Shown piece after piece: positions 5,639 through 44,200 of a stretch of 64,000 bases of DNA. The notes beneath the pieces are model-generated. The model was not told the origin of the DNA. It ran no database searches and saw only the letters and a program-made list of their open reading frames with translations. The position numbers and the translations under genes are program-made. Position 1 is the first letter of the stretch. The number at the start of each line of letters is the position of its first letter. Location of the stretch: contig NC_086097.1 in NCBI RefSeq assembly GCF_963921235.1, forward strand, positions 25,608,001 to 25,672,000, read 5' to 3'. This stretch comes from Mobula hypostoma (Eukaryota).

Positions 5639-6467
5639 AAGATTTAATGGCATTTGCGCATTTCGGACTGCAGGTAAGAGGTTTCTTTAGTTTTTTTCAA
5701 AGCAGTTACCTGGTAGGATGCTCACACAAAATAAAGGACGTTGAACCCCTGACAAGATAGATATTCAATAAGCAACACAGACAAAATGCTGGAGTTCCTG
5801 ATGAAGGGTCTTGGCCAAAACATCAACCTTTTATTTCCCTCCACAGATACTGTCTAACTTGCTGAGTTAGACCAGAAGTCCATAAGATATAGGAACAGAA
5901 GTAGGCCACCTGGTCTGCTTCGCCATTCATCCAATTCTTCCAATCATCTCTACTCCCCTGCTTTCTCCTCATACCCCTTGATGCCTTTGCTAATCAAGAA
6001 CCTATCTGTCTCTGCCTTAAATACACCCATTGACTTGGCCTCCACAGCTGCTAGTGGTAACAAATTCCACAGATTTACCACCCTCTGACTAAAGTCATTT
6101 CTCGGCATCTCTGCTCTAAATGGATGTCCTTCAATCCTGAAGCCGTGCCCTCTTGTCCTAGACTCTCCTACCATGGGAAATAACTTTGCCATATCTAATC
6201 TATTCAAGCCTTTAAACATTCGAAATGTTTCAATGAGATGCCCCCCTCATTCTCCTGAACTCCAGGGAATACAGCCCAATAGTTGCCAGACGTTCCTCAT
6301 ACAGAATCAGAATCTGGTTTATTATCATCGGCAGGTGACGTGAAATTTGTTAACTTAGCGGCAGCAGTTCAATGCAATACATAATCTAGCATAGAAAAAT
6401 AATAATAAATAAAATAAATTAATAATAATAATCAATAAACTAGCAAATCAATTACATATATTGAATA

Positions 6468-7780
6468 TAAACACAAACAACAGGAATTCTGCAGATGCTG
6501 GAAATTCAAGCAACACACACTGACTCTCACAGCTATCTGGACTATTCCTCTTCTCACCCTGTCTCTTGCAAAAACGCCATTCCCTTCTCGCAATTCCTCC
6601 GTCTCCGCCACATCTGCTCTCAGGATGAGGCTTTTCATTCTTGGACGAGGGAGATGTCTTCCTTTTTTAAAGAAAGGGGCTTCCCTTCCTCCACTATCAA
6701 ATCTGCTCTTAAACGCATCTCCCCCATTTCACGTACATCTGCTCTCACTTCATCCTCCCACCACCCCACTAGGAATAGGGTTCCCCTGGTCCTCACCTAC
6801 CACCCCACCAGCCTCCGGGTCCAACATATTATTCTCCGTAACTTCCGCGACCTCCAACGGGATCCCACCACTAAGCACCTCTTTCCCTCCCCCCCCTGCA
6901 TTCCGCAGGGATCGCTCCCTACACAACTCCCTTGTCCATTCGTCCCCCCCATCCCTCCCCACTGATCTCCCTCCTGGCACTTATCCGTGTAAGCGGAACA
7001 AGTGCTACACATGCCCTTACACTTCCTCCCTTACCACCATTCAGGGCCCCAAACAGTCCTTCCAGGTGAGGCAACACTTCACCTGTGAGTCGGCTGGGGT
7101 GATATACTGCGTCCGGTGCTCCCGATGTGGCCTTTTATATATTGGTGAGACCCGATGCAGACTGGGGGACCGCTTTGCTAAACATCACGCTCTGTCCGCC
7201 AGAGAAAGCAGGACCTCCCAGTGGCCACACATTTTAATTCCACATCCCATTCCCATTCTGACATGTCTATCCACGGCCTCCTCTACTGTAAAGATGAAGC
7301 CACACTCAGGTTGGAGGAACAACACCTTATATTCCGTCTGGGTAGCCTCCAACCTGATGGCATGAACATCGACTTCTCTAACTTCCGCTAATGCCCCACC
7401 TCCCCCTCGTACCCCATCTGTTACTTATTTTTATACACACATTCTTTCTCTCACTCTCCTTTTTCTCCCTCTCTCCCTCTGAATATACCCCTTGCCCATC
7501 CTCTGGGTCCCGCCCCCCTTGTCTTTCTTCCCGGACCTCCTGTCCCATGATCCTCTCGTATCCCTTTTGCCTATCACCTGTCCAGCTCTTGGCTCCATCC
7601 CTCCCCCTCCAGTCTTCTCCTATCATTTTGGATCTCTCCCTCCCCCTCCAACTTTCAAATCCCTTACTCACTCTTCCTTCAGTTAGTCCTGACGAAGGGT
7701 CTCGGCCTGAAACGTCGACTGCACCTCTTCCTAGAGATGCTGCCTGGCCTGCTGCGTTCACCAGCAACTTTTATGTGTGC
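6468..7780 (+). mobile_element. Penelope-like element (Neptune type), 5'-truncated, with an inverted ~47-bp 3' terminus at its left end
   Basis: Frameshifted RT C-terminus, CKRNKCYTC motif and GIY-YIG (VIYCVRCSRCGLLYIGET). TSD TACATA(T/C)ATTGAATA at 6453-6467 and 7781-7795. Confidence 0.92.
7685..7720 (+). ncRNA. Minimal type I hammerhead ribozyme in the PLE pseudo-LTR
   Basis: AGTC-CTGACGA-AGG(GTCTCGG)CCT-GAAA-CG-TC^GACT. Core CUGANGA/GAAA/UH is intact, helix I is AGTC/GACT, and helix III is the palindrome ACGT. Predicted cleavage after C7716. Confidence 0.88.
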
Positions 7781-10700
7781 TACATACATTGAATAGATTT
7801 TTTTAATGTGCAAAAACAGACTGTATATTTTTTTAAAAAGTGAGGTAGTGTCCAAAGATTCAATGTCCATTTAGAAATCAGATGGCAGAGAGGAAGAAGC
7901 TTTTCCTGAATCGCTGAGTGTGTACCTTCACACTTCTGTACCTCCTACCTGATGGTTACAGTGAGAAAAGGACATGCCCTGGGTGCTGGAGGTCCTTAAT
8001 AAAGGACGTTGCCTTTCTGAGACTCTGCTCCCTAAAGATGTCCTGGCTACTTTGTAGGCTAGTGCCCAAGATGGGGCTGACTAGATTTACAACTTTCTGC
8101 AGCTTCCTTCGGTCCTGAGCAGTAGCCCCTCCATACCAGACAGTGATGCAGCCTGTCAGAATGCTCCCCATGGTACAACTATAGAAGTTTTTGAGTGTAT
8201 TTGTTGATAGGCCAAATCTCTTCAAACTCCTAATAAAGTATAGCCGCTGTCTTGCCTTCTTTATAACTACATCGATATGTTCAGACTAGGGATCTTGACA
8301 CCCAGGAACTTGAAACTGCTCACTCTCTCCACTTCTGATCCCTCTATGAGGATTGGTATGTGCTCCTTCGACTTACCCTTCCTAAAGTCCATAGTCAGCT
8401 CTTCCATCTTACTGACATTGAGTGCCAGGTTGTTGCTGCGGCACCACTCCACTAGTTGGCATATCTCACTCCTGTACACCCTCTCGTCACCACCTGAGAT
8501 TCTACCAACAATGTTGCATCATCAGCAAATTTATAGATGGTATTTGAGCTATGCCTAGCCACACAGTCATGTCTATATAGAGAGTAGAGCAGTGGGCTAA
8601 GCACACACCTGAGGTGCACCAGTGTTGATCGTCAGCGAGGAGGATATGTTATCACCAATCCGCACAGACTGTGGTCTTCCAATTAGGAAGTCAAGGATCC
8701 AATTGCAGAGGGAGGAACAGAGGCCCAGGTTCTGCAACTTCTCAGACAGGATTGTGGGAATGATGGTATTAAATGTTGAGCTATAGTTGACGAACAGCAT
8801 CCTGACAGAGGTGTTTGTGTTGTCCAGGTGGTCTAAAGCCATGTAGGGAGCTGTTGAGATTGAGTCTGCCGTTGACCTATTGTGGCAACAGGTAAATTGC
8901 ATTGGGTCCAGGTCCTTACTGAGGCAGGAGTTCAGTCTAGTCATGACCAACCTCTCAAAGCATTTCATCACTGTCGATGTGAGTGCTATCAGGCGATAGC
9001 CTTTAAGGCAGCCCACATTGTTCTTCTTAGGCACTGGTATAATTGTTGCCTTTTTGAAGCAAGTGGAAACTTCTGCCCATAGCAGTGAGAGGTTGAAAAT
9101 GTCCCTGAATACTCCCGCTAGTTGGTTGCCGTTCCCTTTCATTCCTGGAATCATTCTAATGAGTCTTCTCTGAACCCTCTCCAAAGTCAGTATATCCTTT
9201 CTATAATAAGGAGCCCAAAACTGCACACAATACTCCAAGTATGGTCTCACGAGTGCCTTATAGAGCCTCAACATCACATCTCTGCTTTTATATTCTACCT
9301 CTAGAAATGAATGCCAACATTGTATTTGCCTTCTGTACCACTGACTCAACCTGGAGGTTAACCTTTAAGGTATCCTGCACAAGGACTCCCAAGTCCCTTT
9401 GCATCTCTGCATTTTGAATTCTCTCCCCATCTAAATAATAGGCTGCCCGTTTATTTCTTCTACCAAAGTGCATTTCCAACATTGTATTTCATTTGCTACT
9501 TCCTTGCCTATTCCCCTAAACTATCCCAGTCTCTTTGCGTACTCTGTTTCCTCAACACTACCCGCTCCTCCACCCCCCTTTGTATCTGGCAAATTTAGCC
9601 ACAAATCCATTAATCCCATAGTCCAAATCATTGACATACATCGTAAAAAGCAGTGGTCCCAACACCGACCCCTGTGGAACTCCACTGGTAACTGGCAGCC
9701 AGCCAGCCAGAGTAGGATCCCTTTATTCCCACTCTCTATTTTATGCCGATCAGCCAATGCTCCACACATGCTAGTAACTCCCCTGTAATTCTATGGGATC
9801 TTATCTTGCTAAGCAGCCTCATGTGCGGCACCTTGTCAAAGGCCTTCTGAAAATCCAAGTACACCACATCTACTGCATCTCCTTTGTCTACCCTGCTTGT
9901 AATTTCCTCAAAAAATTGCAGTAGGTTAGTCAGGTCGGATTGTCTTTTCAGGAAACCACGCAGGCTTTGGCCTATCTTGTCACATGCCTCCAGGTACTCC
10001 ATAATCTCATCCCTAACAATTGATTCGAACAACTTACCAACCACTGATGTCAGGCTAACAGGTCTATAGTTTCCTTTCAGCTGCCTCCCATCCTTCTTAA
10101 ATAGCCGAGTAACATTTGCAATTTTCTAGTCATCTGGTACAATGTCAGAATCTATCGCCTCTTGAAAGATCATTGTTAATGATTCCACAATCTCTCCACC
10201 TACTTCCTTCAGAACCCGCGGGTGCATTCCATCAGGTCCAGGAGATTTATCCACCCTCAGACCAATAAGCTTCTTGATCACCTTCTCAGTAGTAATTTTC
10301 ACTGCACATACTTCACTTCCCTGACACTCTTGAATGTCCTGTATACTGCAGGTGTCTTCCATTGTGAAGACTGATGCAAAATCAGTTCCTCTGCCATCTC
10401 TGCGTCTGTCATACAATATCTCCAGCATCATTTTCTATTGGTCTTATATCTACCCTCTACTCCCTTTTACCCTTTAAATACTTAAAAAAGCTTTTAGTAT
10501 CTTCTTTGATATTAGTCACCAGCTTCCTTTCATAATTCATCTTTTCCTTCCTAATGACCTTCTTAGTTTTCTTCTGCAAGTTTTTAAAAGCTTCCCAATC
10601 CTCTATCTTCCCACTAGCTTTGGCTTCCTTGTATGCCTTCTCATTTGCTTTTACTTTGGCTCTGACTCACTTGTCAGCCACAGTAGTGTCCTTCTTCCAT

Positions 10701-11269
10701 TCAAAAATTTCTTCTTCTTTGGAATATATCTGTCTTGCACTTCTCTCATTTGTATGCAGTTCCTCCAGCATTTTCTGTGTGTTGTTCTAGATTTGCAGCA
10801 TCTGAAGAATATCTTCTAAAATATCCAATGAGTTTTCAAAGATTTTGTTCTTAAGGCACAGGTGATGCTGCAAGGTCCCACAGATGGTCACCACACTTGC
10901 CCCAATACAGTAAAAAACAACTTTTTATTGTGCAGTGTCGGTAGACATTCTAAAACATTGACACTTTAATCTAAAACAAATTGTTTTGGTTGTAACATAT
11001 CAATCTACAGTTGAAAAACTCTGCTTAGCCACTTCAAGGGGCATTTATTGTCAACCAATTAATGAACTAAAATCCTAATTGTGCATGATGGAAATCAGTG
11101 TGATGCGCTTCTATACCGCCAGGGACAAGTTTAAGGAGAACCTAACATGATGTTTTCCCTACACATATGAATATTTCATATATGTATTCCCCACACTTGA
11201 ATATTTCAGCTAAGAGTGTCCCTGGTTTATTGGCTGGAAAGAGCTATATGACCTGAGTTTAAGCAGTAT

Positions 11270-11880
11270 ACAAATAGAATCATAGGGTCATACGGCTTGG
11301 AAACAGGGCCCTTTGGCCCAACTCGCTCACACCAACCAAGGTATGATTCCCCTAAGTTGGTCCCCTCTACCCACATTTAGTCTATATCCTTCTAAACCTT
11401 TCCTATCCATAGTTATCCAAATGTCTTTTAAATGTCGTTATTGCACTTGCCTCTCCTACATTCTGTGACAGCTCATTTCTTATTAGTATCATCCTCTATG
11501 TGAAGTTGTTGCCCCACCGATCCCTTTTAAATCTTTCCCTACTCACTTTAACCTATGCCCTCTAGTATTTGATTCCCTGTCCCTGGGGAAAAAACTGAGC
11601 GTTCACCTTATCTATGAACCTCATTAATTTCACCCATCAGTCTCCTATGTTCCAACTAATAAAGTCTTAGTCCATCTAACCTCTCCCTATAACTCAGACC
11701 TTCAAATCCTAGCAAAATCTTTGCACTTTTTCCAGCTTACTGACATATTTGCTATAACAGGGTCACCAAAATCATACACAATGCTTCATGTGTGGTTTTA
11801 CCAATGTCTTGTACCACTGCAGCATATCATCTAAACTCTTACAGTTGATTACCTTATCGATTAATGCCAGCATGTCAGAT
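11270..11880 (-). mobile_element. Old CR1 3' fragment
   Basis: Degenerate similarity to the 3' ends of the younger CR1 copies in this window. Confidence 0.65.
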
Positions 11881-12475
11881 CTGTCTTCACCACTCTGTCT
11901 TCCCCGATGCCACTTTCAGCAAACTATGTACCAGTGCTCCGAGATCCCTCTGTTCCACAACACACCCCAGGGAACTATCATTCACTGTACAAGAACTACC
12001 CTGTTTTTACTTTCCAAAATGGGTTCATCCAAAGCCAAAACCAGAATGGGTTTCCAATCAAAATGCAAAATTACACAACATTTGGGAATCCTTAGCCGAC
12101 TTACTCAGCTAATGAAAATCCTTCTGTAATCTTCATTAAATTTCTTCATGTCTTCACATCTTGTACCATCAAATGCAAAAATGTCAGTGGTAAAGACATT
12201 TTTCTTGAGTTAGGAGCCAAACTGTGATGCTCTGGAAGCTTTCTGGACAGGGAGTGTGCAATGGTCACTTAACATTTCCCCATTCTATCCCTAATCTCAT
12301 CATGATTTTCATAAAGGATTTGTCCCTTTTCAAAGTTTTTGTTCATTGTTACTTTTGCTAACATATTTCTGATTTCCCTAGAGAAAAAAAATTTTACCTG
12401 AGCAACACACACAAAATGCTGGAGGAACTCGACAGGTCAGGTAACATTTATAGAAATGAATCAACAGTCAACATT

Positions 12476-13095
12476 TCATCTTTCTTCACCACCTCTTTAG
12501 TCAAGAAAGCACAGCAGAGTCTCCATTTTGAGGAGATTGGGGTGAGTGAGGCATCCCCCCCGCCATTCCAACTATTTTTTACGGGAACATCATTGCGAGC
12601 ATCCAGACCTGCTGTATCACTGTCTAGTATGGGAATTGCAAGTCATCTGACCACAAGTCCCTTCAGAAGATTGTGAGGACTGCTAAGGATCACCATCAGA
12701 CATGTTTACCAGGAGCGCTGCATATGCAGGGCCCTTAGTATCATCAATGATCCTTCCCATCCATCAATGATCCCCCTACCGTCAGGCAAGAGGTATCATA
12801 GCATTAGGATAAGGACTGTTAGGATGGAATATAGCTTCTTCCTTCAAGCTGTGAGACAACTGTTCTGCCTGCCACCAGCCAAGTCTCATCGCTTACGAAG
12901 CACCAATTACATTGAATTGTTTACTTTTTAACTTACGTCGTAAATGCACCATATTATTTATTAACTTATTTGTGGTAATACATGCTGTGTGTGAATTATA
13001 TATACTGTCTTGTGCACTTTAGTCTAGAAGAATATTGTTTTGTTTGGTGGTATACATGTGTATGGTTGAATCACAATAAAATTGATCTTGAACTT
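12476..13095 (+). mobile_element. Degenerate Rex1/Babar-like 3' fragment
   Basis: KKAQQ.LHF and SFFPQAVR-like remnants, then AATAAA and a short-repeat tail. Confidence 0.6.
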
Positions 13096-18990: not shown

Positions 18991-18999
18991 AAATGTAAT

Positions 19000-25518: not shown

Positions 25519-25875
25519 CTTTTAAAAATAAATAGCAAAACTTAGACTTCAAATACCACAAGCACCAATTTTCAAACAGAACAATTCTTAAAAGAGATGC
25601 AGATTTGGAGAGTGAATAGAGATGTTTTCTGTTCCAACTATTTTAGATGAGTGTGTGTGTGAACAAAGATTACTAGGGTGTCAACAGGTTTGCATAAAGC
25701 AAAATCAAATACACCTGCACCAGTTGGGACAACACAACTCTACAGAGGCTAAAAAGAATCAGATTCTATTATTTCACAAACACGAGGAAATCTGCAGATG
25801 CAGGAAATTTAAGCAACACACACAAAAAATGCTGGTGAACGCAGCAGGCCAGGCAGCATCTATAGGAAGAAGTAC

Positions 25876-25912
25876 AGTCGACGTTTTCGGGCCAAGACCC
25901 TTCGTCAGGACT
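25876..25912 (-). ncRNA. Hammerhead ribozyme variant (one extra A after GAAA)
   Basis: Minus strand reads AGTCCTGACGAAGGGTCTTGGCCCGAAAACGTCGACT. Confidence 0.7.
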
Positions 25913-26827
25913 AACTGAAAGAAGAGATAGTAAGAGATTTGAAAGTGGGAGGGGGGGGGAGGGGGAGGGGGAGATCGGAAATGACAGGAGAAGACAGGAG
26001 GGGGAGGGATGAAGCTAAGTGCTGGAAAGTAGATTGGCAAAAGGGGTACAGAGCTGGAGAAGGGGGAGGATCATGGGATGGGAGGCCTAAGGAGAAAGAA
26101 AGGGGGAGGGAAGCCCAGAGGAAGATGGAGAGCAGGCAAGGAGTAATGTGAGAGAGAAAAAAGAGAAAACAAAAGGGGAGGGAAATAATAGATAAATAAG
26201 GGATGGGGTAAGAAGGGGAGGAGGGGCATTAATGGAAGTTAGAGAAATCAATGTTCATGCCATCAGTTTGGAGGCTATTCAGATGGAATACAAGGTGTTA
26301 TTCCTCCAACCTGAGTGTGGCTTCATCTTGACAGTAGAGGAACCCATGGATTGACATATCAGAATGGGAATGGGACATGGAATTAAAATGTGTGGCTACT
26401 GGGAGATCCTGCTTTCTCTGGCAGACAGAGCGTAAGTGTTCAGCGAAACAACACCTTATATCCTGTCTGGTAGCCTCCAACCTGATGGCATGAACATTGA
26501 TTTCTCTAACTTCCATTAATGCCCCTCCTCCCCTTCTGACCCCATCCCTTATTTATTATTCCCCTTTTTTTTCTTCTTTTTTCTCTCTCTGTCCCTCTCA
26601 CAATCACTCCTTGCCTGTTCTCCATCTTCCTCTGGGCTCCCCTCCCCCTTTCTTTCTCCCTAGGCCTCCCATCCCATGATCCTCTCCCTTCTCCAGCTCT
26701 GTATCCCTTTTGCCACTCAACTGTCCAGCTCTTAGCTCTATCCCTCCCCCTCCTGTCTTCTCCTATCATTTCGGGTCTCCCCCTCCCCCTCCCACTTTCA
26801 AATCTCTTACTAGCTCTTCTTTCAGTT

Positions 26828-26863
26828 AGTCCTGACGAAGGTTCTCGGCCTGAAACGTCGACT
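26828..26863 (+). ncRNA. Minimal hammerhead ribozyme
   Basis: AGTCCTGACGAAGGTTCTCGGCCTGAAACGTCGACT with an intact core. Confidence 0.85.
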
Positions 26864-27574
26864 GTACCTCTTCCTATAGATGCTGCCTGGCCTGCTGTGT
26901 TCCACCAGCATTTTGTGTGTGTTGCTTGAGATTCTATTATTTTATTATCTTCATGTATTTATGTTTGAATTTTGTAATATCCTGAAATCTGTAAATAGGT
27001 GTACAATGTGTCATACTAATTTGCCTGTATATAAGATTTTGGCTCTCAAAACCTTTAAAACTGAGAAGGGTTGCCAAATGTACAGATTTATGTACAAATA
27101 ATTTAGCAGCAGCAGATAGGGACACAAAAAACTGCAACACGACGAAGGAGGAGAGAGGATGGATCTCTGCTTTGAAACAATGAAACTTGGCATGAACATG
27201 ATCAGTAATAGGAAGCATGCGGTGTGCTCTGAACAACTGTGGTAGAGGCCCACAAAAATATGCTCCAATCTCCTGCAGGAGTGGTCACATGGATAAACTT
27301 TACACCATTATTAATCACACATTGAGATTCATTACCGGTCCCACAGTTTTAAATCACAAAGTGTGCAGTTTGTGACCTCCTGAGTGATCTAGGGCTATCC
27401 TCTTTGGAGTAAAAGAGGATGAGAGGTGACTCGATAGAAGTGTACAAGATGATAAGAGGCATAGATGCAGTGAATGGCCAGAGACTTTTTCCCAGGGCAG
27501 AAACAGCTAATACGAGTCATAAACTTAAGGCATTACAAAAGTTCAAAGTTCAAAGCAAATTTATTATGTAAGTA

Positions 27575-27879
27575 TGTACCCCTTGCCCATCCTCTGGGTT
27601 TTCCCCCCTCCCCCCTTTCCTTCTCCCTGGGCCTCCTGTCCCATGATCCTCTCATATCCCTTTTGCCAATCACCTGTCCAGCTCTTGGCTCCATCCCTCC
27701 CCCTCCTGTCTTCTCCTATCACTTCTGATCTCCCCCTCCCCCTCCCACTTTCAAATCTCTTACTAACTTTTCCTTCAGTTAGTCCTGACGAAGGGTCTCG
27801 GCCCGAAACGTCGACCGTACCTCTTCCTAGAGATGCTGCCTGGCCTGCTGCGTTCACCAGCAACTTTGATGTGTGTTGC
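27575..27879 (+). mobile_element. PLE pseudo-LTR-only insertion (no inversion) with hammerhead at 27781-27816
   Basis: Matches 7490-7780. TSD TTTATTAT(G/C)TAAGTA at 27560-27574 and 27880-27894. Confidence 0.88.
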
Positions 27880-29187
27880 TTTATTATCTAAGTACATGTG
27901 TGCTACCTTGAGATCATTCAGAGGAATGTATGGGAGGATGACAAGTAATTTTTTTTTGACACAGAGGGTGGCAGTGTGTTCCATGCACCCTCCACTCTCC
28001 ATGCAAATAAATCTACTTCTGATACCCCCCCCCCGTATTTTCCTCCAATGACCTTAAAATTATGCCCTGTTGTATTAGCCATTTCCACCTTGGGAAAAGT
28101 CTCGGATCTCCCCTCTATTTATCACTCTTATGACCTTATACCATGTACTACCTTGAGATTCATTTGGGGGAATGCATAGGGGAATATTAGAGGCAGTTTC
28201 TTATTTTACACAGAGAATGGCAAGTGTGTAGAATGCACTGCCAAGGGTGGTAGTAAAGGCAGATGTATTGTGGACATTTAAGGCATATGGATGGAAGAAA
28301 ATTGGAAGGCTATGTGGAAGGGAAAGATTCGACTGATCTTAAGAGTAGGTTATAGAACCAGCACAACATTGTAGGCTGAAGGGCCTATATGTGTTTATGT
28401 TCAAACAGAGACACTATCAATGAAGGCAGATGAAGATGGGCACAAATTGATGACTGCAGATTTGAGCAGGGAAATGCCCGAGATATTTAAAGTCACAAAG
28501 AGTTGGTACACAAGGTACATAAACTCTGGGAACAGAGGGGAGAATAAATCAGACTCATGTGCCAAAAGGAAAGTGTTGAATGATGGAAAAGTTTATGCTG
28601 AAGAGTTTCACTACAATACAAAGTAACATTCCCCTCCACCTCCCATCCTTTGGCACAGCCCCAGATCCCCACTTGCCCATCTTTTGATGTTTCCTCGATG
28701 AGAAAAGTGAATTAAAAGCTGAAACACACTGATTGAAACAGTCCCTCACTTAATGTCTCCTGGCATAAAGGCTGCAGGAGTGACTTTGGTATATACTACC
28801 TGGCATAATGCCCCAAATAATGGAAGAAGCTGGTGACAAAGACTGGCATACACAATCGGATGACATCATTCAGCGCATCTCTCACTCAATGACAATGTGT
28901 TTTTCTCTGCTGTACTAAATGACCAAAATGAGTCAGAGCCACCCTCCGGCCAAAAGAATAAAAAAGCTCCTAAATGCAGCTGGCAAGAAAATACCCTCAG
29001 CGACAAGTCAGCATCTGGTTTCATTTACAAATGGTGCAGATGGAGCAACCAGAGCAAATTGTGAGTGAAACAAGCAAAGGCAATTTTCTCATGAAATCAC
29101 AGGCCATCAAATATTCAGCTGTCTACATCAAAAGAAGCAAACTGGAGCCATAGAGTTATACAGCACAGAAACAGGTCATTGAAACTT

Positions 29188-29965: not shown

Positions 29966-32723
29966 GATCCAAGCATCTACCTGAGCTATAACATTTGCCC
30001 CTTTTTTCTCTGAGCCTTTATTATCCATGTACCTCTCCACTTTCTTCACAATATTACAACACCCCAATAAATTGCTCATTTGAACACGGAGAAAAAGCTT
30101 TAAAATGACCTGCAACACCACTCCAAGGTGAGGATGGCATGGTAGGACAGCAGTCAGCATAACACTTTACAATGCCAGCGAACTAGTTTCAATCCCCACA
30201 ACTGTCTATAAAATTGTACATTTTCCCCATGACTGTGTGGGTTTCCTCCGGATGCTCTGGTTTTCTCCCACACACCAAAGATGCATGTATTAGTAAATCG
30301 TGGGCATGTTGGTGCTGGAAGCATGGCAACATTTGCAAGCTGACCCCAGCACTTTCTCGGGCTGTGTTGGTCATTGACACACACAATGCAGTTAGCTGTA
30401 TGCTTCAGTATACATGTGACAACTAAGGCTAGTCTTTTCTCTCAGAGTTGTACAGCATAGAAACAGAGCCTTCAGCTCAACTCGTCCATGCTGTCTGGGC
30501 TAGTCCATTGGCCTACGTCATGTCGCAACTCCAAAACCAGGGGCTTTGGCCTGTGCAGAACACTAGCAGAAAACCACAAAGGATGGCTAGACTGGAGATA
30601 AAGAATATTACAGCACAGTATGGGCCCTTTAGCCCACAATGTTGTGCCGACCTCTTAACGACCTTCTAACCCTTTCCTGTTGCAAGAAGTATGAAATGTT
30701 GAGAACGGAGTATGAAGAAGCAAAGTAGTATGGATTCATTGGCTTCCCAGGACCCAAAATGCATCAGTGTGTGATTATAAACACAATAGATTATGCAGAA
30801 GCTGGAAAGTTTAAGCAACACACACAAAATGCTGAAGGTACTCAGCAAGTCGAGCAGCATCCATGCAGGGCATAAGCAGTTTAGATTTCGGGCCAATGAA
30901 GGCCACTCCTTAGATGCTGCCTGACTTGCTGAGTTCCTCCAGTATTTTGTGAGTGTTACTCAGTGGGTGATTGTATGTGCCCAGCACACAGTGATTAAAT
31001 AGTAAAAGTGAAGGACAACTCAAGACACCATTCACACACAAGCATGTTCGTTTTGAGATGCTGCGCATATCTGATGCCAGCACATACTTCCCTGTCCACC
31101 TCACTCTTCACAGCACTAAATCCATTCACTGCAAAATGTGATTTAACAATAAAAGACAGTTCCTATGTTTAAGGTATAATGGGTTTCAACTGCAGCTAAC
31201 ACACTTTCTGTCCAATGATCAATACTTAACTGCTAGGACCAGTAGTGTTACTGTTACTCTCCTGTCAGGTCAGAGGAGCTTAATATATAACACTGCAAAA
31301 AGATTTATTGACTCAAAGGTTGGCTTTATTACAATTTGACATTGCTTTAGTAACAAAGCTTGATATTTATAAAATTTAAACCGCAGCCTCAGCTCAAAGT
31401 TGAAAAGCTAGAAAGAAATTGTCAGATGTTTAGCTCAGGAACATTGGGTTTGATTGTGAGTGCCTTCACAATGTCACAACACTTATTAGTTCTCCATCTG
31501 AACACAAGGCAAAGACATAAAGTGACTGAAGGTGCCAAGCCCGGACAGTACAAGGACGGTGCGGGGATGGATAGCCTTGGAACTTCAATGATATGCTTCA
31601 TGTCAGCCATCCTGTGCATACCATCCAAAGAAAGGTGAATCAGTAAAACATCACCCTGCTGTTTGAAGCATTGTGTGATCACTGTACGGATGGCATCTAA
31701 ATTAAATGTTAGAAATTCACTGTATAAAATGCTGAAAGTAGATTTCACAGTACAATGTGTATTATAAATAAGATTTTTCTTTCCTACCCCAAGAAAGTAA
31801 CGCATTTTAATAGTGTCTGTTCTTTTGTGCAGCACCCAGCTGAAGGTGAGCAACAGACAGAAAATGAGAAACAAACATCCTCAATCCATATTTGGTCATT
31901 ATAAAGTGAGAAGGAACCCCCACTGACACTAGCTGCAAAGCAGCAAAGGTCTCTTATGAAGGCAAGGTGTGGAAAAAACAAGAGGAATTGGATTAAAGTT
32001 CCCTGAATACAGTGTAGTCAGGAAAGGAGAGTCATGTCAGCACTGAATAGGGGAATGTTCCAGTGCCAAAGAGAGGATATGCTGGAGCAATCAAAGGAAA
32101 GATATGCTTAAAGGGAAAAAAAAATCAGGGATGCAGTGATACCACTCCAAGTATTCAACAGGTACCAACTAGTGGAATGATGCTGAAGAACAAATTTACA
32201 GGGAATTACCAGTTGTGAAAATAATAGTGGATTTGAACTATCCAAACATTAGGTTGGGTTAGACCAATCAGCAAGGAAGTGGGTGGGATTGAGGGTCAGA
32301 AAGAGGAAGAGAGAGACATACAGAGAGAGGGAGAGAGATTCAAGATTGTTTAATGTCAGTTCCTGGACACAAGTGTAAAAACAACAAAATAATTGTTACC
32401 CTGGATCCAATGCAGCACAAAAAAAGAACACAATAATGATACTAAAAATAGAGGGCTATGCACTAGGGAAATTCTAGGCAGTTTCTAGAGTAGGTTACAT
32501 GGTTAGCGCAACATTGTGGGTCAAAGGGCCTGTATGTAATGTGCTGTAAATTTCTATGTTCTATGTTTAAAAAAATACACACAATATGAAGAATTAAAAA
32601 AGCTTACAATACCATCCAAAAGCTGTATGTATATATGTGCCTAAGACTTTGGCACTGTACTGTATATACATATATTGATCAGATTGACAACTGCAAATGC
32701 ACAATGGGAAGTCTTTAAAATGG

Positions 32724-32883
32724 AAACAACAGGAATACTGCAGATGCTGGAAATTCAAGCAACACACATCAAAGTTGCTGGTGAACGCAGCAGGCCAGGC
32801 AGCATCTGTAGGAAGAGGTGCAGTCGACATTTCAGGCCGAGACCCTTCGTCAGGTCTCGGCCTGAAACGTCGACTGCACCTCT
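32724..32883. mobile_element. Miniature fold-back PLE tail insertion (160 bp)
   Basis: The minus arm runs from the 3' terminus into the hammerhead, then a short plus arm follows. TSD TCTTTAAAATGG at 32712-32723 and 32884-32895. Confidence 0.88.
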
Positions 32884-33159
32884 TCTTTAAAATGGGATGT
32901 TTTAGCTAGTCTGGATGAGAGAGAAAGGTTAGGAAATTTAAACCAGGACTTCTTGGATCATCAAGAGAAAATTTAACCATGAAAAACTATCCATGCAACA
33001 AATGCCAGGTAAATAATTGGGAACAAGACTGATTACAGTAAGTTCAGAGAGAAACCGATATAAGTGAGGCAAGGAGAGCATGCGAAAGACAGGCAACAAA
33101 AGCAAAGGCCAAAAATGTGCCACAATACTTTAACACATAAAGGTCTGCATGAATAGAGG

Positions 33160-34206: not shown

Positions 34207-34362
34207 AAAAAGCAGAATTTGTTACATTTACAGAGTAAGTTCAGTGTGCAGATGGACAATAAGGTGTAAGGGCCATGAGCGGGTAAATTGAGTTCAAGGG
34301 TTAACATACAACATATGTTTATGGTACAAGATATCTGTTCAAGATCTTTTAACAATGAGATA

Positions 34363-34753
34363 CACTCAGTGGTCACTTTATAAGGTACAGGAAGTACCTA
34401 ATAAAGTGGCCACTGAGTGTATGTTCAAGGTCTTCTGCTGCTGTAGCCCATCCACTTCAAGCTTCAACGTGTTGTACACCCAGAGGTATTCTTCCGCACA
34501 TCGCTGTTGAGGCACATGATAATTTGAGTTACGGTTGGCATCAGTCTGAACCAGTCTGGCCATTCTCCTCCGACCTCTCTTATTAACAAAGCATTTTCAT
34601 TCATAGAAATGCTGCTCACTGAATGTTACTTTGTTATTCACACCATTCTCCGTACATCCTGGAGACAGCTGTGCATGAAAATCCCAGGAGATAGCAGATA
34701 TTTGCATTAACAAGCAGGTGCAGATGTGTACCTAATAAAGTGGCCACTGAGTG
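34363..34753 (-). mobile_element. Internally deleted Tc1/mariner element
   Basis: TA-flanked ~28-bp TIRs CACTCAGTGG(T/C)CACTTTAT(A/T)AGGTAC and a frameshifted transposase remnant (MARLVQTD...). An extra TIR copy sits at 34394-34419. Confidence 0.8.
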
Positions 34754-34767
34754 TAGAAGCTAACACG

Positions 34768-35801: not shown

Positions 35802-36499
35802 TAACCTTCAGCCTGATAGTACAATTCTCAAGCTTTTCTATCTTCTGCCTGGAGAAAAGAGAATGACCATGATGAGAGGGGTCTTTGATTATGCCGGCTG
35901 CTTATCCTAGGCAGTAATAGGGGATTCGATTGTAAGGGGAATAGATAGGCATTTCTGCGGCCGCAAACGAGACTCCAGGAAGGTATGTTGCCTCCCTGGT
36001 GCAAGGGTCAAGGATGTCTCTGAGCGGCTGCAGAACATTCTGGAGTGGGAGGGTGAACAGCCAGTGGTCGTGGTGCACATAGGTACCAACGATATAGGTA
36101 AAAAACGGGATGAGGTCCTACAAGGCGAATTTAGGGAGTTAGGAGATAAGCTAAAAAGTAGGACCACAAAGGTAATAATCTCTGGATTACTACCAGTGCC
36201 ACGTGCTAGTCAAAGTAGAAATAGGAGGATATCTTAGATGAATATGTGGCTTGAAAAATGGTGCAAGGAGGAGGGATTCAAATTTCTGGGGCATTGGAAC
36301 CAGTTCTGGAGGAGGTGGGACCGGTACAAACAGGACGGTCTGCACCTGGGCTGGACTGGAACCAATGTCCTAGGGGGAGCATTTGCTACTGTTGTTCAGG
36401 AGGATTTAAACTAATGTGGCAGGGGGATGTGAACAAGTGCAGAGAGACAGAGGGGTGTGAAATGAGGGTAGAAGCAAAAAGTAGTAAGGTGAAAAGTAA

Positions 36500-36721
36500 G
36501 CAACACACATCAAAGTTGCTGGTGAACGCAGCAGGCCAAGCAGCATCTATAGGAAGAGGCGCAGTCGACGTTTCAGGCCGAGACCCTTCGTCCTGACGAA
36601 GGGTCTCGGCCTGAAACGTCGACTGCGCCTCTTCCTATAGATGCTGCTTGGCCTGCTGCGTTCACCAGCAACTTTGATGTGTGTTGCTTGAATTTCCAGC
36701 ATCTGCAGAATTCCTGTTGTT
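36500..36721. mobile_element. Miniature palindromic PLE insertion centred on a hammerhead
   Basis: Perfect ~93-bp inverted arms around ...CTTCGTC CT GACGAAG... plus the 3' terminus. TSD TAAGGTGAAAAGTAA at 36485-36499 and 36722-36736. Confidence 0.93.
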
Positions 36722-38672
36722 TAAGGTGAAAAGTAAAGTGGCTGGCCGGCAAATCCAGGGCAAAAATCAAAAAGGGCCACTTTTCAACATAATTGTATAA
36801 GGGCTAAGAGTGTTGCAAAAGCAAGCCTGAAGGCTTTGTGCGTCAATGTAAGGAGCAGTTGTAACAAGGTGGATTGAATGTGCAGATAGTTAGTAATAGA
36901 ACCATAGAACCATAGAAACTACAGCACAGAAACAGGCCCTTTGGCCCTTCTTGGCTGTGCCGAACCATTTTCTGCCTAGTCCCACTGACCTGCACACGGA
37001 CCACATCCCTCCATACACCTCCCATCCATGTATCTGTCCAATTTATTCTTAAATGTTAAAAAAGAACCCGCATTTACCACCTCGTCTGGCAGCTCATTCC
37101 ATACTCCCACCACTCTCTGTGTGAAGAAGCCCCCCCTAATGTTCCCTTTAAACTTTTCCCCCTTCACCCTTAACCCATGTCCTCTGGTTTTTTTCTCCCC
37201 TTGCCTCAGTGGAAGAAGCCTGCTTGCATTCACTCTATCTATACCCATCATAATTTTATATACCTCTATCAAATCTCCCCTCATTCTTCTACGCTCCAGG
37301 GAATAAAGTCCTAACCTATTCAACCTTTCTCTGTAACTGAGTTTCTCAAGTCCCGGCAACATCCTTGTAAACCTTCTCTGCACTCTTTCAACCTTATTTA
37401 TATCCTTCCTGTAATTTGGTGACCAAAACTGAACACAATACTCCAGATTCAGCCTCACCAATGCCTTATACAACCTCATCATAACATTCCAGCTCTTATA
37501 CTCAATACTACGATTAATAAAGGCCAATGTACCAAAAGCTCTCTTTACGACCCTATCTACCTGTGACGACACTTTTAGGGAATTTTGTATCTGTATTCCC
37601 AGATCTCTCTGTTCCACTGCACTCCTCAGTGCCTTACCATTAACCCTGTATGTTCTACGTTGGTTTGTCCTTCCAACGTGCAATACCTCACACTTGTCAG
37701 TATTAAACTCCATCTGCCATTTTTCAGCCCATTTTTCCAGATGGTCCAAGTCCCTCTGCAGGCTCTGAAAACCTTCCTCACTGTCTACTACACCTCCAAT
37801 CTTTGTATCATCAGCAAACTTGCTGATCCAATTTACCACATTATCATCCAGATCATTGATATAGATGACAAATAACAATGGACCCAGCACTGATCCCTGT
37901 GGCACACCACTAGTCACAGGCCTCCACTCAGAGAAGCAATTTTCTACCACCACTCTCTGGCTTCTTCCATCGAGCCAATGTCCAATCCAATTTACCACCT
38001 CTCCATGTATACCTAGCGACTGAATTTTCCTAACTAACCTCCCATGCGGGACCTTGTCAAAGGCCTTACTGAAGTCCATGTGGACAATCTCCACTGCCTT
38101 CCCTTCATCCACTTTCCTGGTAACCTCCTCGAAAAACTCCAACAGATTGGTCAAACATGACCTACCACGCACAAAACCATGTTGACTCTCCCTAATAAGC
38201 CCCTGTCTATCCAAATGCTTGTAGATTCTGTCTCTTAGTACTCTCTCCAATAACTTACCTACTACTGACGTTAAACTCACCGGCCTATAATTTCCCAGAT
38301 TACTTTTCGATCCTTTTTTAAACAACGGAACAACATGAGCCATTCTCCAATCCTCCGGCACTTCACCCGTAGACAGCGACATTTTAAATATTTCTGCCAG
38401 GGCCCCCGCAATTTCAACACTAGTCTCCTTCAAGGTCCGAGGGAACACCCTGTCAGGTCCCAGGGATTTATCCACTTTAATTTTCCTCAAGACAGCAAGC
38501 ACCTCCTCCTTTTCAATCCGTACAGTTGCCATGGTCTCACTACTTGATTCCCTCAATTCCATAGATTTCATCGCAAACAACAGGAATTCTGCAGATGCTG
38601 GAAATTCAAGCAACATACATCAAAGTTGCTGGTGAACGCAGCAGGCCAAGCAGCATCTATAGGAAGAGGCGC

Positions 38673-38708
38673 AGTCGACGTTTCAGGCCGAGACCCTTCG
38701 TCAGGACT
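38673..38708 (-). ncRNA. Minimal hammerhead ribozyme (inverted arm)
   Basis: Minus strand reads AGTCCTGACGAAGGGTCTCGGCCTGAAACGTCGACT. Confidence 0.88.
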
Positions 38709-39375
38709 AACTGAAGGAAGAGTGAGTAAGGGATTTGAAAGCTGGAGGGGGAGGGGGAGATGCAAAATGATAGGAGAAGACAGGAGGGGGAGGGATAGAG
38801 CCGAGAACTGGACAGGTGATAGGCAAAAGGGGATACGAGAGGATCATGGGACAGGAGGTCCGGGAAGAAAGACAAGGGGGCGGGGGGGGTGACCCAGAGG
38901 ATGGGCAAGAGGTATATTCAGAGGGACAGAGGGAGAAAAAGGAGAGTGAGAGAAAGAATGTGTGCATAAAAATGAGTAACAGATGGGGTACGAGGGGGAG
39001 GTGGGGCCTTAGCAGAAGTTAGAGAAGTCGATGTTCATGCCATCAGGTTGGAGGCTACCCAGACGGAATATAAGGTGTTGTTCCTCCAACCTGAGTGTGG
39101 CTTCATCTTTACAGTAGAGGAGGCCGTGGATAGACATGTCAGAATGGGAATGGGATGTGGAATTAAAATGTGTGGCCACTGGGAGATCCTGCTTTCTCTG
39201 GCGGACAGAGCGTAGATGTTCAGCAAAGCAGTCTCCCAGTCTGCGTCGGGTCTCACCAATATATAAAAGGCCACATCGGGAGCACCGGACGCAGTATATC
39301 ACCCCAGTCGACTCACAGGTGAAGTGGTGCCTCACCTGGAAGGACTGTTTGGGGCCCTGAATGGTGGTAAGGGAG

Positions 39376-39531
39376 GACCTATGTTCGTGATATCACCCCT
39401 TGTTCAATCCCTTCCGACCTATGTTCGTGATATCACCCCTTGTTCAATCCCTTCCGACCTATGTTCGTGACATACCTCGACACTGTTTTATCACCCCTTG
39501 TTCAATCCCTTCCGACCTATGTTCGTGACAC
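39376..39531 (+). repeat. Tandem 40-bp repeats at the PLE inversion junction
   Basis: Unit GACCTATGTTCGTGATATCACCCCTTGTTCAATCCCTTCC at 39376 and 39416, partial at 39456; the native copy is at about 39489-39531. Confidence 0.95.
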
Positions 39532-40954
39532 TTCTCACGCTCTTAAACTTTTCGATGATTTTAAGTTCCCTGGCCCCCACCGCTTTATTTTCACCATGGA
39601 TGTCCAGTCCTTATATACTTCCATCCCCCATCAGGAAGGTCTCAAAGCTCTACGCTTCTTTTTGGATTCCAGACCTAATCAGTTCCCCTCTACCACCACT
39701 CTGCTCCGTCTAGCGGAATTAGTCCTTACTCTTAATAATTTCTCCTTTTGCTCCTCCCATTTCCTCCAAACTAAAGGTGTAGCTATGGGCACCCGTATGG
39801 GTCCTAGCTATGCCTGCCTTTTTGTTGGGTTTGTGGAACAATCTATGTTCCGTGCCTATTCTGGTATCTGTCCCCCACTTTTCCTTCGCTACATCGACGA
39901 CTGCATTGGCGCTGCTTCCTGCACGCATGCAGAACTCGTTGACTTTATTAACTTTGCCTCCAACTTTCACCCTGCCCTCAAGTTTACCTGGTCCATTTCC
40001 GACACCTCCCTCCCCTTTCTAGATCTTTCTGTCTCTGTCTCTGGAGACAGCTTATCCACTGATGTCTACTATAAGCCTACTGACTCTCACAGCTATCTGG
40101 ACTATTCCTCTTCTCACCCTATCTCTTGCAAAAATGCCATCCCCTTCTCGCAATTCCTCCGTCTCCGCCGCATCTGCTCTCAGGATGAGGCTTTTCATTC
40201 TAGGACGAGGGAGATGTCTTCATTTTTTAAAGAAAGGGGCTACCCTTCCTCCACTATCAACTCTGCTCTTAAACGCATCTCCCCCATTTCACGTACATCT
40301 GCTCTCACTCCATCCTCCCACCACCCCACTAGGAATAGGGTTCCCCTGGTCCTCACCTACCACCCCACCAGCCTCCGGGTCCAACATATTATTCTCCGTA
40401 ACTTCCGCCACCTCCAACGGGATCCCACCACTAAGCACATCTTTCCCTCCCCCCCCTCTGCATTCCGCAGGGATCGCTCCCTACACAACTCCCTTGTCCA
40501 TTCGTCCCCCCCATCCCTCCCCACTGATCTCCCTCCTGGCACTTATCCGTGTAAGCGGAACAAGTGCTACACATGCCCTTACACTTCCTCCCTTACCACC
40601 ATTCAGGGCCCCAAACAGTCCTTCCAGGTGAGGCATCACTTCACCTGTGAGTCGACTGGGGTGATATACTGCGTCCGGTGCTCCCGATGTGGCCTTTTAT
40701 ATATTGGTGAGACCCGACGCAGACTGGGAGACCGCTTTGCTGAACATCTACGCTCTGTCCGCCAGAGAAAGCAGGATCTCCCAGTGGCCACACATTTTAA
40801 TTCCACATCCCATTCCCATTCTGACATGTCTATCCACGGCCTCCTCTACTGTAAAGATGAAGCCACACTCAGGTTGGAAGAACAACACCTTATATTCCGT
40901 CTGGGTAGCCTCCAACCTGATGGCATGAACATCGACTTCTCTAACTTCCGCTAA
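39440..40954 (+). CDS. PLE RT plus GIY-YIG endonuclease ORF (N-terminally truncated, otherwise uninterrupted)
   Basis: TMDVQSLYTSIPH, QTKGVAMGTRMGPSYA, RYIDD and LPFLD motifs; CKRNKCYTC linker (Cys motif typical of the Neptune group); VIYCVRCSRCGLLYIGET...RFAEH. The first ~10 residues come from junction repeats. Confidence 0.93.
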   Translation: MFNPFRPMFVTYLDTVLSPLVQSLPTYVRDTSHALKLFDDFKFPGPHRFIFTMDVQSLYTSIPHQEGLKALRFFLDSRPNQFPSTTTLLRLAELVLTLNNFSFCSSHFLQTKGVAMGTRMGPSYACLFVGFVEQSMFRAYSGICPPLFLRYIDDCIGAASCTHAELVDFINFASNFHPALKFTWSISDTSLPFLDLSVSVSGDSLSTDVYYKPTDSHSYLDYSSSHPISCKNAIPFSQFLRLRRICSQDEAFHSRTREMSSFFKERGYPSSTINSALKRISPISRTSALTPSSHHPTRNRVPLVLTYHPTSLRVQHIILRNFRHLQRDPTTKHIFPSPPSAFRRDRSLHNSLVHSSPPSLPTDLPPGTYPCKRNKCYTCPYTSSLTTIQGPKQSFQVRHHFTCESTGVIYCVRCSRCGLLYIGETRRRLGDRFAEHLRSVRQRKQDLPVATHFNSTSHSHSDMSIHGLLYCKDEATLRLEEQHLIFRLGSLQPDGMNIDFSNFR

Positions 40955-41247
40955 GGCCCCACCTCCCCCTCGTACCCCATCTGTTACTCATTTTTATGCA
41001 CACATTCTTTCTCTCACTCTCCTTTTTCTCCCTCTGTCCCTCTGAATATACCTCTTGCCCATCCTCTGGGTCACCCCCCCCCGTCTTTCTTCCCGGACCT
41101 CCTGTCCCATGATCCTCTCGTATCCCCTTTTGCCTATCACCTGTCCAGCTCTCGGCTCTATCCCTCCCCCTCCTGTCTTCTCCTATCATTTTGCATCTCC
41201 CCCTCCCCCTCCAGCTTTCAAATCCCTTACTCACTCTTCCTTCAGTT

Positions 41248-41283
41248 AGTCCTGACGAAGGGTCTCGGCCTGAAACGTCGACT
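41248..41283 (+). ncRNA. Minimal hammerhead ribozyme (sense arm)
   Basis: AGTCCTGACGAAGGGTCTCGGCCTGAAACGTCGACT. Confidence 0.88.
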
Positions 41284-44200
41284 GCGCCTCTTCCTATAGA
41301 TGCTGCTTGGCCTGCTACGTTCACCAGCAACTTTGATGTATGTTCCATAGATTTCATGCCAGCTTCCTTAGTAAATACAGACGCAAAAAACCTGTTTAAG
41401 ATCTCCCCCATTTCTTTTGGTTCCGCACAAAGCCGACCACTCTGATCTTCAAGAGGACCAATTTTATCCCTTACAATCCTTTTGCTCTTAATATACTTGT
41501 AAAAGCTCTTTGGATTATCCTTCACTTTGACTGCCAAGGCAACCTCATGTCTTCTTTTTGCCCTCCTGATTTCTTTCTTAAGTATTTTCTTGCACTTCTT
41601 ATACACCTCAAGCACCTGATTTACCCCGTTTCCTATACATTTCATACAACTCCCTCTTCTTCTTTATCAGAGTTGCAATATCCCTTGAGAACCAAGGTTC
41701 CTTATTCCTATTCAATTTGCCTTTAATCCTGACAGGAACATACAAACTCTGCACTCTCAAAATTTCCCTTTTGAAGACTTCCCACCTACCAATCACATCT
41801 TTGCCAGTGTCCCAATCCACGCTTTTTAGATCCTTTCTCATTTCTTCAAATTTGGCCTTCTTCCAGTTCAGAACCTCAACCCTAGGACCAGATCTATCCT
41901 TGTCCATGATCAAATTGAAACTAATGGCGTTATGATCACTGGAACCAAAGTGTTCCCCTACACAGACTTCTGTCACTTACCCTAATTCGTTTCCTAACAG
42001 GAGATCCAATATTGCATCCCCTCTAGTTGGTCCCTCTATATACTGATTTAGAAAACTTTCCTGAACACATTTTACAAACTCTAAACCATCTAGACCCCTA
42101 ACAGTATGGGAGTCCCAATCAATGTATGGAAAATTAAAATCCCCTACCACCACAACTTTATGTTTCCTGCAGTTGTCTGCTATCTCTCTGCAGATTTGTT
42201 CTTCCAAGTCTCGTTGACTATTGGGTGGTCTGTAATACAATCCCACTAATGTGGCCATACCTTTCCTGTTTCTCAGCTCCACCCATAAGGACTCAGTAGA
42301 CAAGCCCTCTAATCTGTCCTGCCTGAGCACTGCTGTAATATTTTCCCTAACAAGCAATGCTACTCCCCCACCTTTCATTCCTCTGCCTCGATCACATCTG
42401 AAACATCGGAACCCTGGAATATTAAGCTGCCAGTCCTGCCCCTCCTGTAGCCAAGTTTCACGAATTGCTACAACATCATAATTCCACGTGTCAATCCACG
42501 CCCTCAACTCATCCGCCTTCCCCGCAATACTCCTAGCATTGAAATATATACACCTCAGAAGATTTTTACCACCACTCACAACCTTTCTATCAGCAAATTT
42601 GCTTAAACTTTCAATATCATTTATTTTCACCCCAGCCACACTGTCAGCTCTGGCACTCTGGTTCCCATCCCCCTGCAAATCTAGTTTAAAGCCTCCCCAA
42701 TAGCACTAACAAACCTCCCTGAAAGGATATTGGTCCCCCTGTGGTTCAAGTGTAACCCGTCTCTCTTGTACAGGTCCCACCTGCCCCAGTAGAGGTCCCA
42801 ATGATCCTGAAATCTGAAACCCTGCCCCCTACACCAGTTCCTCAGCCACTTGTTCCTCCTCCAGAGCATCCTATTCCTACCCTCACTGGCACCTAGCACA
42901 GGTAGCAATCCTGAGATTACCACCCTTGAGGTCCTGCTTTTCAACTTCCTACCAAGCTCTCTATACTCACTGTCCAGGACCTCTTCACTCTTCCTTGCTA
43001 TGTCATTGGTGCCTATGTGCACCACGACATCTGGCTGGTCACCCTCCCACTTCAGAATGTCATGCAATCAATCAGAGACATCCTTGACCCTGGCACCTGG
43101 GAGGCAACGAACCATCCTGGATTCTCTGTCACGACCACAGAACCTCCTATCTGCACCTGTAACTATCGAGTCCCCTATCACTACCGCTCTCCTCTTTAGC
43201 TTTTAATGAATATGATATAGTTGGGATCACAGAGACATGGCTCCAGGGTGACCAAGGATGGGAGATCAACAGGGGATATTCAATATTCAGGAGGGATAGA
43301 TATGAAAGAAAAGGAGGTGGGGTGGCATTGCTGGTTAGAGAGGAAATTAACACAATGGAAAGGAAGGACATTAGCCGGGAGGATGTGGAATCGATATGGG
43401 TAGAGCTGCATAACACTAAGGGGCAGAAAACGCTGGTGGGAGTTGTGTACAGGCCACCTAACAGTAGTAGTGAGGTTGGGGATGGCATTAAACAGGAAAC
43501 TAGAAATGCGTGCAATAAAGGAACAGCAGTTATAATGGGTGACTTCAATCTACATATAGATTGAGTGAACCAAATTGGTAAGGGTGCTGAGGAAGAGGAT
43601 TTCTTGGAATGTATGCAGGATAGTTTTCTGAACCAACATGTCGAGGAACCAATTAGAGAGCAGGCCATTCTGGACTGGGTATTGAGCAATGAGGAAGGGT
43701 TAGTTAGCAATCTTGTCGTGCGAGGCCCCTTGGGTAAGAGTGACCATAATATGGTAGAATTCTTCATTAAGATGGAGAGTGATATAGTTAATTCAGTAAC
43801 AAAGGTTCTGAACTTAAAGAAGGGTAACTTTGAAGGTATGAGACGTGAATTAGCTAAGATAGACTGGCAAATGATACTTAAAGGATTGACGGTGGATATG
43901 CAATGGCAAGCATTTAAAGATCACATGGATGAACTACAACAATTGTTCATCCTAGTTTGGCAAAAGAATAAACTAGGGAAGGTAGTGCACCCGTGGCTGA
44001 CAAGCGAAATTAGGGATAGTATCAATTCCAAAGAAGAAACATACAAATTAGCCAGAAAAAGTGGCACACCTGAGGACTGGGAGAAATTCAGTGTCCAGCA
44101 GATGAGGACAAAGGGCTTAATTAGGAAAGGGAAAAAAGATTATGAGAGAAAGCTGACAGGGAACATAAAAACTGACTGTAAAAGCTTTTACAGATATGTG

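Follow-up and report, generated by a model that had tools for sequence, protein, structure and literature searches.

How a mobile element comes to leave two copies of its 3' end in inverted orientation, only one of them carrying the terminal tail, is the question raised by a repeat-rich stretch of vertebrate DNA from Mobula hypostoma (contig NC_086097.1, positions 25,608,001 to 25,672,000; all 64 kb are referred to here as the window). The stretch contains truncated insertions of an endonuclease-bearing (EN+) Penelope-like element, and our tentative answer, held with a little under even confidence, is that the 3' ends of both nicked target strands primed reverse transcription on one RNA. The core of this answer, that two RNA-templated syntheses started from the two target strands, is probably correct. 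The pattern itself is known, and the origin of inverted and tailed Penelope-like ends has been stated as an open problem (PMC8557442); the value of the locus lies in the material it offers for that mechanistic question. The family is young and abundant, with clean 12-16 bp duplications and empty-site paralogues, and can therefore discriminate between one RNA, two RNAs and fold-back of a cDNA.

Copies are labelled A to E, in order, for the five of the original prediction, with F and H added here. Each of A-E is, in the window, a pair of arms whose 3' ends both point outward; the direct repeats on either side measure 15 bp (1 mismatch), 14, 12, 15, and 15 bp. All five predicted insertions, with their duplications of 12-15 bp, are thus borne out, although the list had missed the two-armed H and the single-armed F. 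The features are as follows.

6453..6467, no strand: left target-site duplication of A, 15 bp, 1 mismatch to the right copy
6468..6519, minus strand: tailed arm of A, 52 nt; its long end reaches furthest of all, and the arm ends inside the short-start zone
6519..7780, plus strand: tail-less arm of A, with the 3' part of the open reading frame (ORF; reverse transcriptase (RT) thumb, Cys linker, GIY-YIG; frameshifted), the 3' untranslated region and a hammerhead-like motif
7781..7795, no strand: right target-site duplication of A, 15 bp
25761..25774, no strand: left target-site duplication of B, 14 bp
25775..26448, minus strand: tailed arm of B, older subfamily
26446..26928, plus strand: tail-less arm of B, its sequence wholly within that of the tailed arm
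26929..26942, no strand: right target-site duplication of B, 14 bp
27560..27894, plus strand: whole of F, a single-armed, 5'-truncated, tail-less copy (27575-27879)
27560-74 and 27880-94: direct repeats of F, 15 bp, 1 mismatch
30764..30975, no strand: whole of H, an old two-armed copy (30780-30959)
~30780-30896, minus strand, and ~30891-30959, plus strand: tailed and tail-less arms of H
30764-79 and 30960-75: direct repeats of H, 16 bp, 2 mismatches
32712-23 and 32884-95: duplications of C, 12 bp (whole copy 32712..32895)
32724-32854, minus strand, and 32853-32883, plus strand: tailed arm and 31-nt tail-less arm of C, meeting at 2 nt of microhomology inside the hammerhead-like motif
36485-99 and 36722-36: duplications of D, 15 bp (whole copy 36485..36736)
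36500-36592, minus strand, and 36590-36721, plus strand: tail-less and tailed arms of D
38557..38571, no strand: left target-site duplication of E, 15 bp, inside a CR1 long interspersed nuclear element (LINE)
38572..39377, minus strand: tailed arm of E, 806 nt
39378..39470, plus strand: templated filler at the inner junction of E
39471..41342, plus strand: tail-less arm of E, 1872 nt, with an uninterrupted, 5'-truncated frame for RT, Cys linker and GIY-YIG to 40954
41343..41357, no strand: right target-site duplication of E, 15 bp
1093..4420, minus strand: paralogous CR1 LINE without the insertion; E's 15-bp target stands once at 2749-2763 (1 difference)

The same duplication search at 300 random position pairs scored 0 for 270 pairs and at best 10 (one case), as compared with 12-15 for A-E; the duplications of 12-16 bp at all seven loci lie above that best random score. 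E's host CR1 is 98.8% identical to its paralogue (40 differences in 3334 aligned bases), and the single occurrence of the 15-mer in the latter indicates that E's repeat was made on insertion. The empty site is also crossed by three contigs of run X16, one of four runs (X1, X5, X13, and X16) whose assembled contigs were aligned on E's tailed arm; depth in these contigs does not equal copy number, and the comparison listed 24 loose-end rows (with 1190 more) and 15 joints (with 44 more). All 24 runs listed consist of assembled contigs, with no RNA among them, which carries no information on expression. It is highly improbable that the palindromes are assembly artefacts or rearrangements that followed insertion: the identity of D's arms over 89 columns is what such an origin would leave, but the exact target duplications, the empty site, arm-specific transitions in E and the consistently one-sided tail all speak against it, and the same layout has been published for other phyla.

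The coding sequence places the element among EN+ Penelope-like elements, with one predicted ORF encoding RT followed by a C-terminal GIY-YIG nuclease. The frame in E matches Pfam RVT_1 (E-value 4e-5) and then GIY-YIG (E-value 4e-4), both below curated cut-offs, and aligns over 98-100% of its length with many longer RT proteins at 45-55% identity; its best named relatives among 920 matches come from Mobula hypostoma (95%), Hypanus sabinus (78-89%), and sharks (63-72%). The linker between RT and nuclease reads C-x4-C-x2-C, in keeping with the CX2-5CxxC of Neptune and Nematis, and its presence points to that group and excludes Penelope and Poseidon. "Neptune-like" is presumably a likelier label than Nematis, given the vertebrate distribution. 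Two ray proteins, P0002 and P0004, named as isoforms of kinase-domain and chitinase-domain genes, are 78-88% identical to the element ORF, which suggests that those gene models absorbed element sequence. No full-length copy is present in the 64-kb window. The layout typical of EN+ Penelope-like elements, an inverted 5'-truncated copy within a target duplication and with a one-sided tail, is found in 6/6 two-armed copies.

Outward-facing arms within a target duplication mean that each arm sits where a cDNA primed by that target strand would lie. A's arms are adjacent, overlapping by ~6 nt; in B-E the same stretch was copied twice, with overlaps from 31 nt to ~760 nt (the longest in E), as the original prediction had described. 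E nevertheless holds 42 nt in its tailed arm alone and ~1.1 kb in its tail-less arm alone. Each arm of E and of A has sequence of its own, so that neither arm of the pair can have been copied from the other as DNA, which implies two separate syntheses on RNA. Priming from both target ends, as previously suggested, is well supported by this unique sequence, the orientation of the arms and the action of an anole Penelope-like protein on both strands. The same observation bears on a different origin, in which the cDNA of the tail end folds back, is copied as DNA, stops ~35 nt short at a bound protein and is joined through microhomology. Such folding is impossible for A and E, would need a 145-nt loop closed by ~3 nt in B, and gives no account of F, which has a short end without a tailed arm; two start sites have, moreover, been demonstrated in vitro (PMC11167929). 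As the main route, fold-back thus appears unlikely, even though it is geometrically feasible for B, C, and D, the tail-less arm lies wholly inside the tailed arm in B, C, D, and probably H, C and D turn at inverted matches of 2-3 nt spaced 5-10 nt apart, and microhomology at the short end is the trace expected of end joining.

The positions of the ends were compared relative to the long end of D, the shortest of the long ends. The six long ends fall at 0, 0, +1, +4, +4, and +8 nt, a spread over nine positions rather than the fixed terminus that had been predicted. The seven short ends fall at -31, -34, -34, ~-35, -37, -38, and -89 nt; the supposedly free variation of this end, 25-110 nt short, therefore reduces to a zone of eight positions, 31-38 nt upstream, that holds six of the seven, with C (~89 nt) the sole outlier. 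Within single insertions the distance between long and short end is 34, 35, ~35, 42, or 45 nt, and 90 nt in C. This asymmetry is the known 30-40 nt one-sided tail of Penelope elements, so that the proposed rule of one fixed and one variable end restates a published feature. In the contigs of three organisms, junctions are concentrated at the long end and have long, AT-rich and mutually dissimilar flanks; the rows listed include 261 contigs at 38575 (X1), 219 and 247 at 38574-75 (X5), 193 at 38573 (X13), and 26-33 at each of three positions (X16). Among the 15 joints listed, two are strand switches at the short-start zone (38614 and 38619; one contig each, from two other organisms), the zone in which the tailed arm of A also stops; both facts would follow from one RNA engaged at two sites. 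An X13 row at 38634 was not used as evidence of short ends, because subfamily divergence explains it equally well. The short zone is perhaps more diffuse than the long one, and that much of the claimed asymmetry may hold.

A narrow short-end zone also bears on whether a single pass could have made both arms, through read-through of an inverted parent, or through a circular or tandem intermediate copied once and then excised by the endonuclease so as to leave the tail on one side. The second arm would then end at random rather than in an 8-nt zone, every inner junction examined differs between copies, and circles yield tandems, not inversions. Circular templates have been proposed (PMC4209133), and PMC8557442 ascribes the tail to endonuclease resolution of an intermediate; we nonetheless regard a single-pass origin as very unlikely.

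Target microhomology of 1-2 nt is present at 7/7 short ends (11 nt in sum; P = 0.0036, 0.0013, and 0.026 under three nulls), as compared with 2/5 scorable long ends. At the short end this echoes the second primer of L1 insertions (PMC11702581), while a long end with little microhomology echoes the anole enzyme, which starts without homology (PMC11167929). The inner junctions show microhomology of 1 nt in A, ~3 nt in B, 2 nt in C, and 3 nt in D. In E the junction is occupied by filler (39378-39470) in which two blocks, of 13 nt and 27 nt, that stem from the long arm's 5' end recur in the order c-b-c-b-c; over 39378-39528 the order is c-b-c-b-c-a-b-c (blocks of 13, 27, and 18 nt). It looks as though one cDNA end had primed on the other several times. 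Synthesis primed iteratively by microhomology would give a similar pattern, as would an RT that jumped repeatedly across a 40-nt loop.

From the architecture, duplications, empty site, end positions and microhomologies, all of which can be read off the DNA, we infer the following enzymatic steps. A complex of two proteins would nick the target strands at points staggered by 12-16 bp, so that each side ends in a 3' overhang. One end would prime at the downstream start zone, the tail end, at a position set by the protein and without base pairing; the other would prime ~35-45 nt upstream, aided by 1-2 base pairs. The trailing enzyme might then stop where the leading one had started, as in A, giving classical twin priming, or displace the leading cDNA and re-copy the same stretch of RNA, as in B-E and H. 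The 3' ends of the cDNAs would be joined via 1-3 nt of microhomology, with templated filler in E, and a single primed end would give an ordinary single-armed copy such as F. Engagement of one RNA at two sites would explain both why a tailed and a tail-less arm are paired in 6/6 two-armed copies and why the tailed arm of A stops in the short-start zone; were each arm chosen independently, the 6/6 pairing would have a probability of at most 0.5^6 = 0.016. Displacement by the trailing enzyme is plausible for an RT lacking RNase H, and to our knowledge Penelope-like RTs do lack it. The RT of R2 carries out strand displacement. It is conceivable, and here our confidence is lower again, that this is the default mode of integration, with both strands priming one RNA at RT sites ~35-45 nt apart and the trailing one displacing and re-copying. 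If so, the one-sided tail and the inverted pseudo-long terminal repeat (pseudo-LTR) would be two faces of one reaction. Our literature search, with older papers and supplements outside its scope, found no explicit two-primer model of Penelope inversions.

The main competitor has both ends priming on two template copies, either a separate RNA for each end, brought together in a dimeric complex, or the two pseudo-LTRs within a single tandem transcript. Two templates would allow double copying without displacement in 5/6 copies. The anole protein is predicted to dimerise (PMC11167929), in D. virilis the active form consists of partial tandems (PMC2377424), and L1 insertions in opposite orientation arise from two RNAs (PMC11702581). 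Separate causes would be required, however, for the 6/6 pairs of one tailed and one short arm and for the tailed arm of A stopping where the other arm starts, and four-taxon counts identify no arm pair in the window from different subfamilies. The two-template part of the original prediction is accordingly possible, though less likely than priming on one RNA, which fits the 6/6 pairing and A's abutting arms at least as well.

Those four-taxon counts otherwise make the arms of an insertion sisters. Informative sites join B's arms against other copies by 19:1, 19:2, and 46:1, and E's arms by 9:1 and 12:1. E's arms differ at 7-8 of ~755 sites (8/753 columns), as compared with 27-28 differences from A, and all seven differences in the pairwise alignment are transitions; D's arms differ at 0/89 columns and C's at 1/27. 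B's arms differ by 6-12%, depending on the alignment, and overall by less than from other copies. The divergence between E's arms (~1%) is close to that between host and paralogue (1.2%), as expected if the arms were identical at insertion. Gene conversion between the arms of an insertion is another possible source of their similarity. The variant CATACAT is present in both arms of E and in none of the eight other window arms covering that column, as first reported, but it is not private and does not prove a shared template: four variants common to E's arms within the stretch aligned can make up as much as 18 (CATACAT), 35, 28, and 48% of summed contig depth in X1, the best-matching organism. 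The same four stand below 3% of depth in a relative, and an E arm-specific change at ~2%.

Several observations weigh against priming on one RNA. The variants that E's two arms have in common are diagnostic of a recent subfamily and not of one molecule, so that arm similarity cannot identify a single template; over the last ~95 columns B's arms differ at 12 positions and B's tailed arm from C or D at 10, so the expected closeness of arms, otherwise upheld, fails there. Five of six copies duplicate the same stretch (up to ~760 nt), which would call for the displacement proposed above, and in B, C, and D the supposedly trailing arm extends further 5' than the leading one (by ~145, 10, and 5 nt). 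The in vitro system showed no such asymmetry, its two strands sharing their start sites (PMC11167929). Short-end microhomology is ambiguous for A and H in a sample of seven, C's short end lies outside the short zone, and the short end is absent among the 24 loose-end rows listed, a weak negative given the 1190 beyond them.

A hammerhead-linked RNA dimer had been suggested as the double template, and a candidate ribozyme was recognised in E by eye against the motifs of PMC4209133:

38673..38708, minus strand: minimal type-I hammerhead-like motif in the tailed arm of E
~41248-41283, plus strand: second copy of the motif in E

Like the minimal type-I hammerheads described in PMC4209133, the motif has CUGANGA and GAAA cores, one additional base ahead of stem II and a palindromic remnant of stem III, and it lies in the pseudo-LTR. 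Rfam gave no hammerhead match at E-value <=1 over 36400-41500; its microRNA-hairpin look-alikes on D's palindrome, below the gathering score, were set aside as a by-product of the palindrome. The minimum-energy folds computed for the single strand recover the motif's hairpin and not the catalytic core, and the 174-nt pseudo-LTR end folds no better than its shuffles (z -0.72). Cutting is predicted between 38676 and 38677. No arm of A-F ends there, and arms that reach the putative ribozyme continue through it, which excludes hammerhead cleavage as an arm boundary in A-F and suggests that the templates were uncleaved, as they are in vitro, where cleavage is dispensable and the uncleaved RNA serves as template (PMC11167929). 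The insertions bear no sign of cleavage or ribozyme dimerisation having shaped them, and the suggested link of two RNAs through the ribozyme finds no support here.

Of 11 arms, three end ~25-31 nt further 5' than the predicted cut, at the motif's 5' edge, where the rows listed also include a loose-end peak (38707-38708; 193-517 contigs per row in three DNA runs) that stems partly from a related subfamily with different upstream sequence. Many copies start at this edge, including the inner ends of C and D and older pieces at 5796, 22788, 56701, and 16214. Directly upstream of it lie a pyrimidine tract and AG, resembling a splice acceptor, and TTAGTC, which we take to be initiator-like. The D. 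virilis intron ends at the same ribozyme position (PMC4209133). The edge could mark the point where the RNA begins, where it is spliced or where RT pauses, and divergence between subfamilies could account for part of the signal. The joints listed include one from 38708 to 38674, a tandem of the 35-nt hammerhead core in three contigs of X1 and two of X5, which is what a jump of the enzyme over the base of stem I would leave. Most copies of the young subfamily have U at position 38685, which closes putative stem II, turning a G-C pair into G-U; the base is C in ~20% of X1 and about half of X13 depth.

Pen2a_Av of Adineta vaga (PMC3846280) and the units in Fig. 2 of Craig et al. 2021 (PMC8557442) show the same canonical inverted, tailed EN+ unit, usually with a direct pseudo-LTR before the ORF and with duplications of 8-10 bp; the copies here consist of two truncated arms alone, their target duplications measure 12-16 bp, and their tails are 34-45 nt long apart from one of 90 nt. 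The descriptions of the canonical unit in those two papers, in the sections available, offer no two-primer model. The purified protein of PAc, a Poseidon element of Anolis carolinensis, nicks and extends both strands, and Frangieh et al. identify the tail as the stretch between two RT start sites (PMC11167929). Shared with the insertions here are internal RT starts at two sites bounding the tail, nicking and extension of both strands, AT-rich targets and an uncleaved template. Poseidon, however, lacks the Cys linker seen here, and the ORF in the window does not include the N-terminal region through which the anole protein is predicted to dimerise; the available text of PMC11167929 contains no analysis of inverted two-armed products or of one-sided pairing. 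With L1 (PMC11702581) the likeness extends to extension of both ends, a discrete 12-18 bp duplication, second-primer microhomology, end joining of two cDNAs, and inner breakpoints within 1-10 nt, as in A. L1 starts at poly(A), places its second primer anywhere and rarely overlaps its segments; here, in contrast, the starts are confined to two narrow zones, and double copying of one stretch is the usual outcome. Adjacent, nearly non-overlapping segments, the mark of classical L1-type twin priming, are thus seen in A only and not in B-E or H, which work like twin priming without giving its classical product. On element ends, PMC9977147 adds nothing further.

A profile built from some of the pieces that it then matched gave 31 matches in the window at E-value <10, as compared with one (E-value 4.3) in the reversed window; 13 of the 31 are the arms of the seven copies with duplicated targets. 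More than 100,000 contig records matched the family in one run. Contigs from viruses, metagenomes and prokaryotic genomes contained 0 matches to a degenerate pseudo-LTR pattern. Related families have left old and decayed pseudo-LTR pieces at 5760-5877, 16127-16462, 22669-22866, 59276-59508, 10758-10814, 12400-12478, and 56701-56802; several form inverted pairs, and the pairs at 5760 and 22669 seem to have been truncated on their right side by other sequence. Around the older pieces, 11 boundary pairs (the weak profile matches at 4957, 62259, and 63733 excepted) gave no duplication above the random range. Palindromes of ~65 bp at 20478-20543 and 34360-34422 have no Penelope profile match. Two young 5'-truncated CR1 LINE copies (1093-4420 and 36901-43005) are 1.2% apart and retain long open frames, and inverted CR1-type LINE pieces at 43977-46024 and 51534-53585, 5.5 kb apart, are 94.8% identical over 2 kb.

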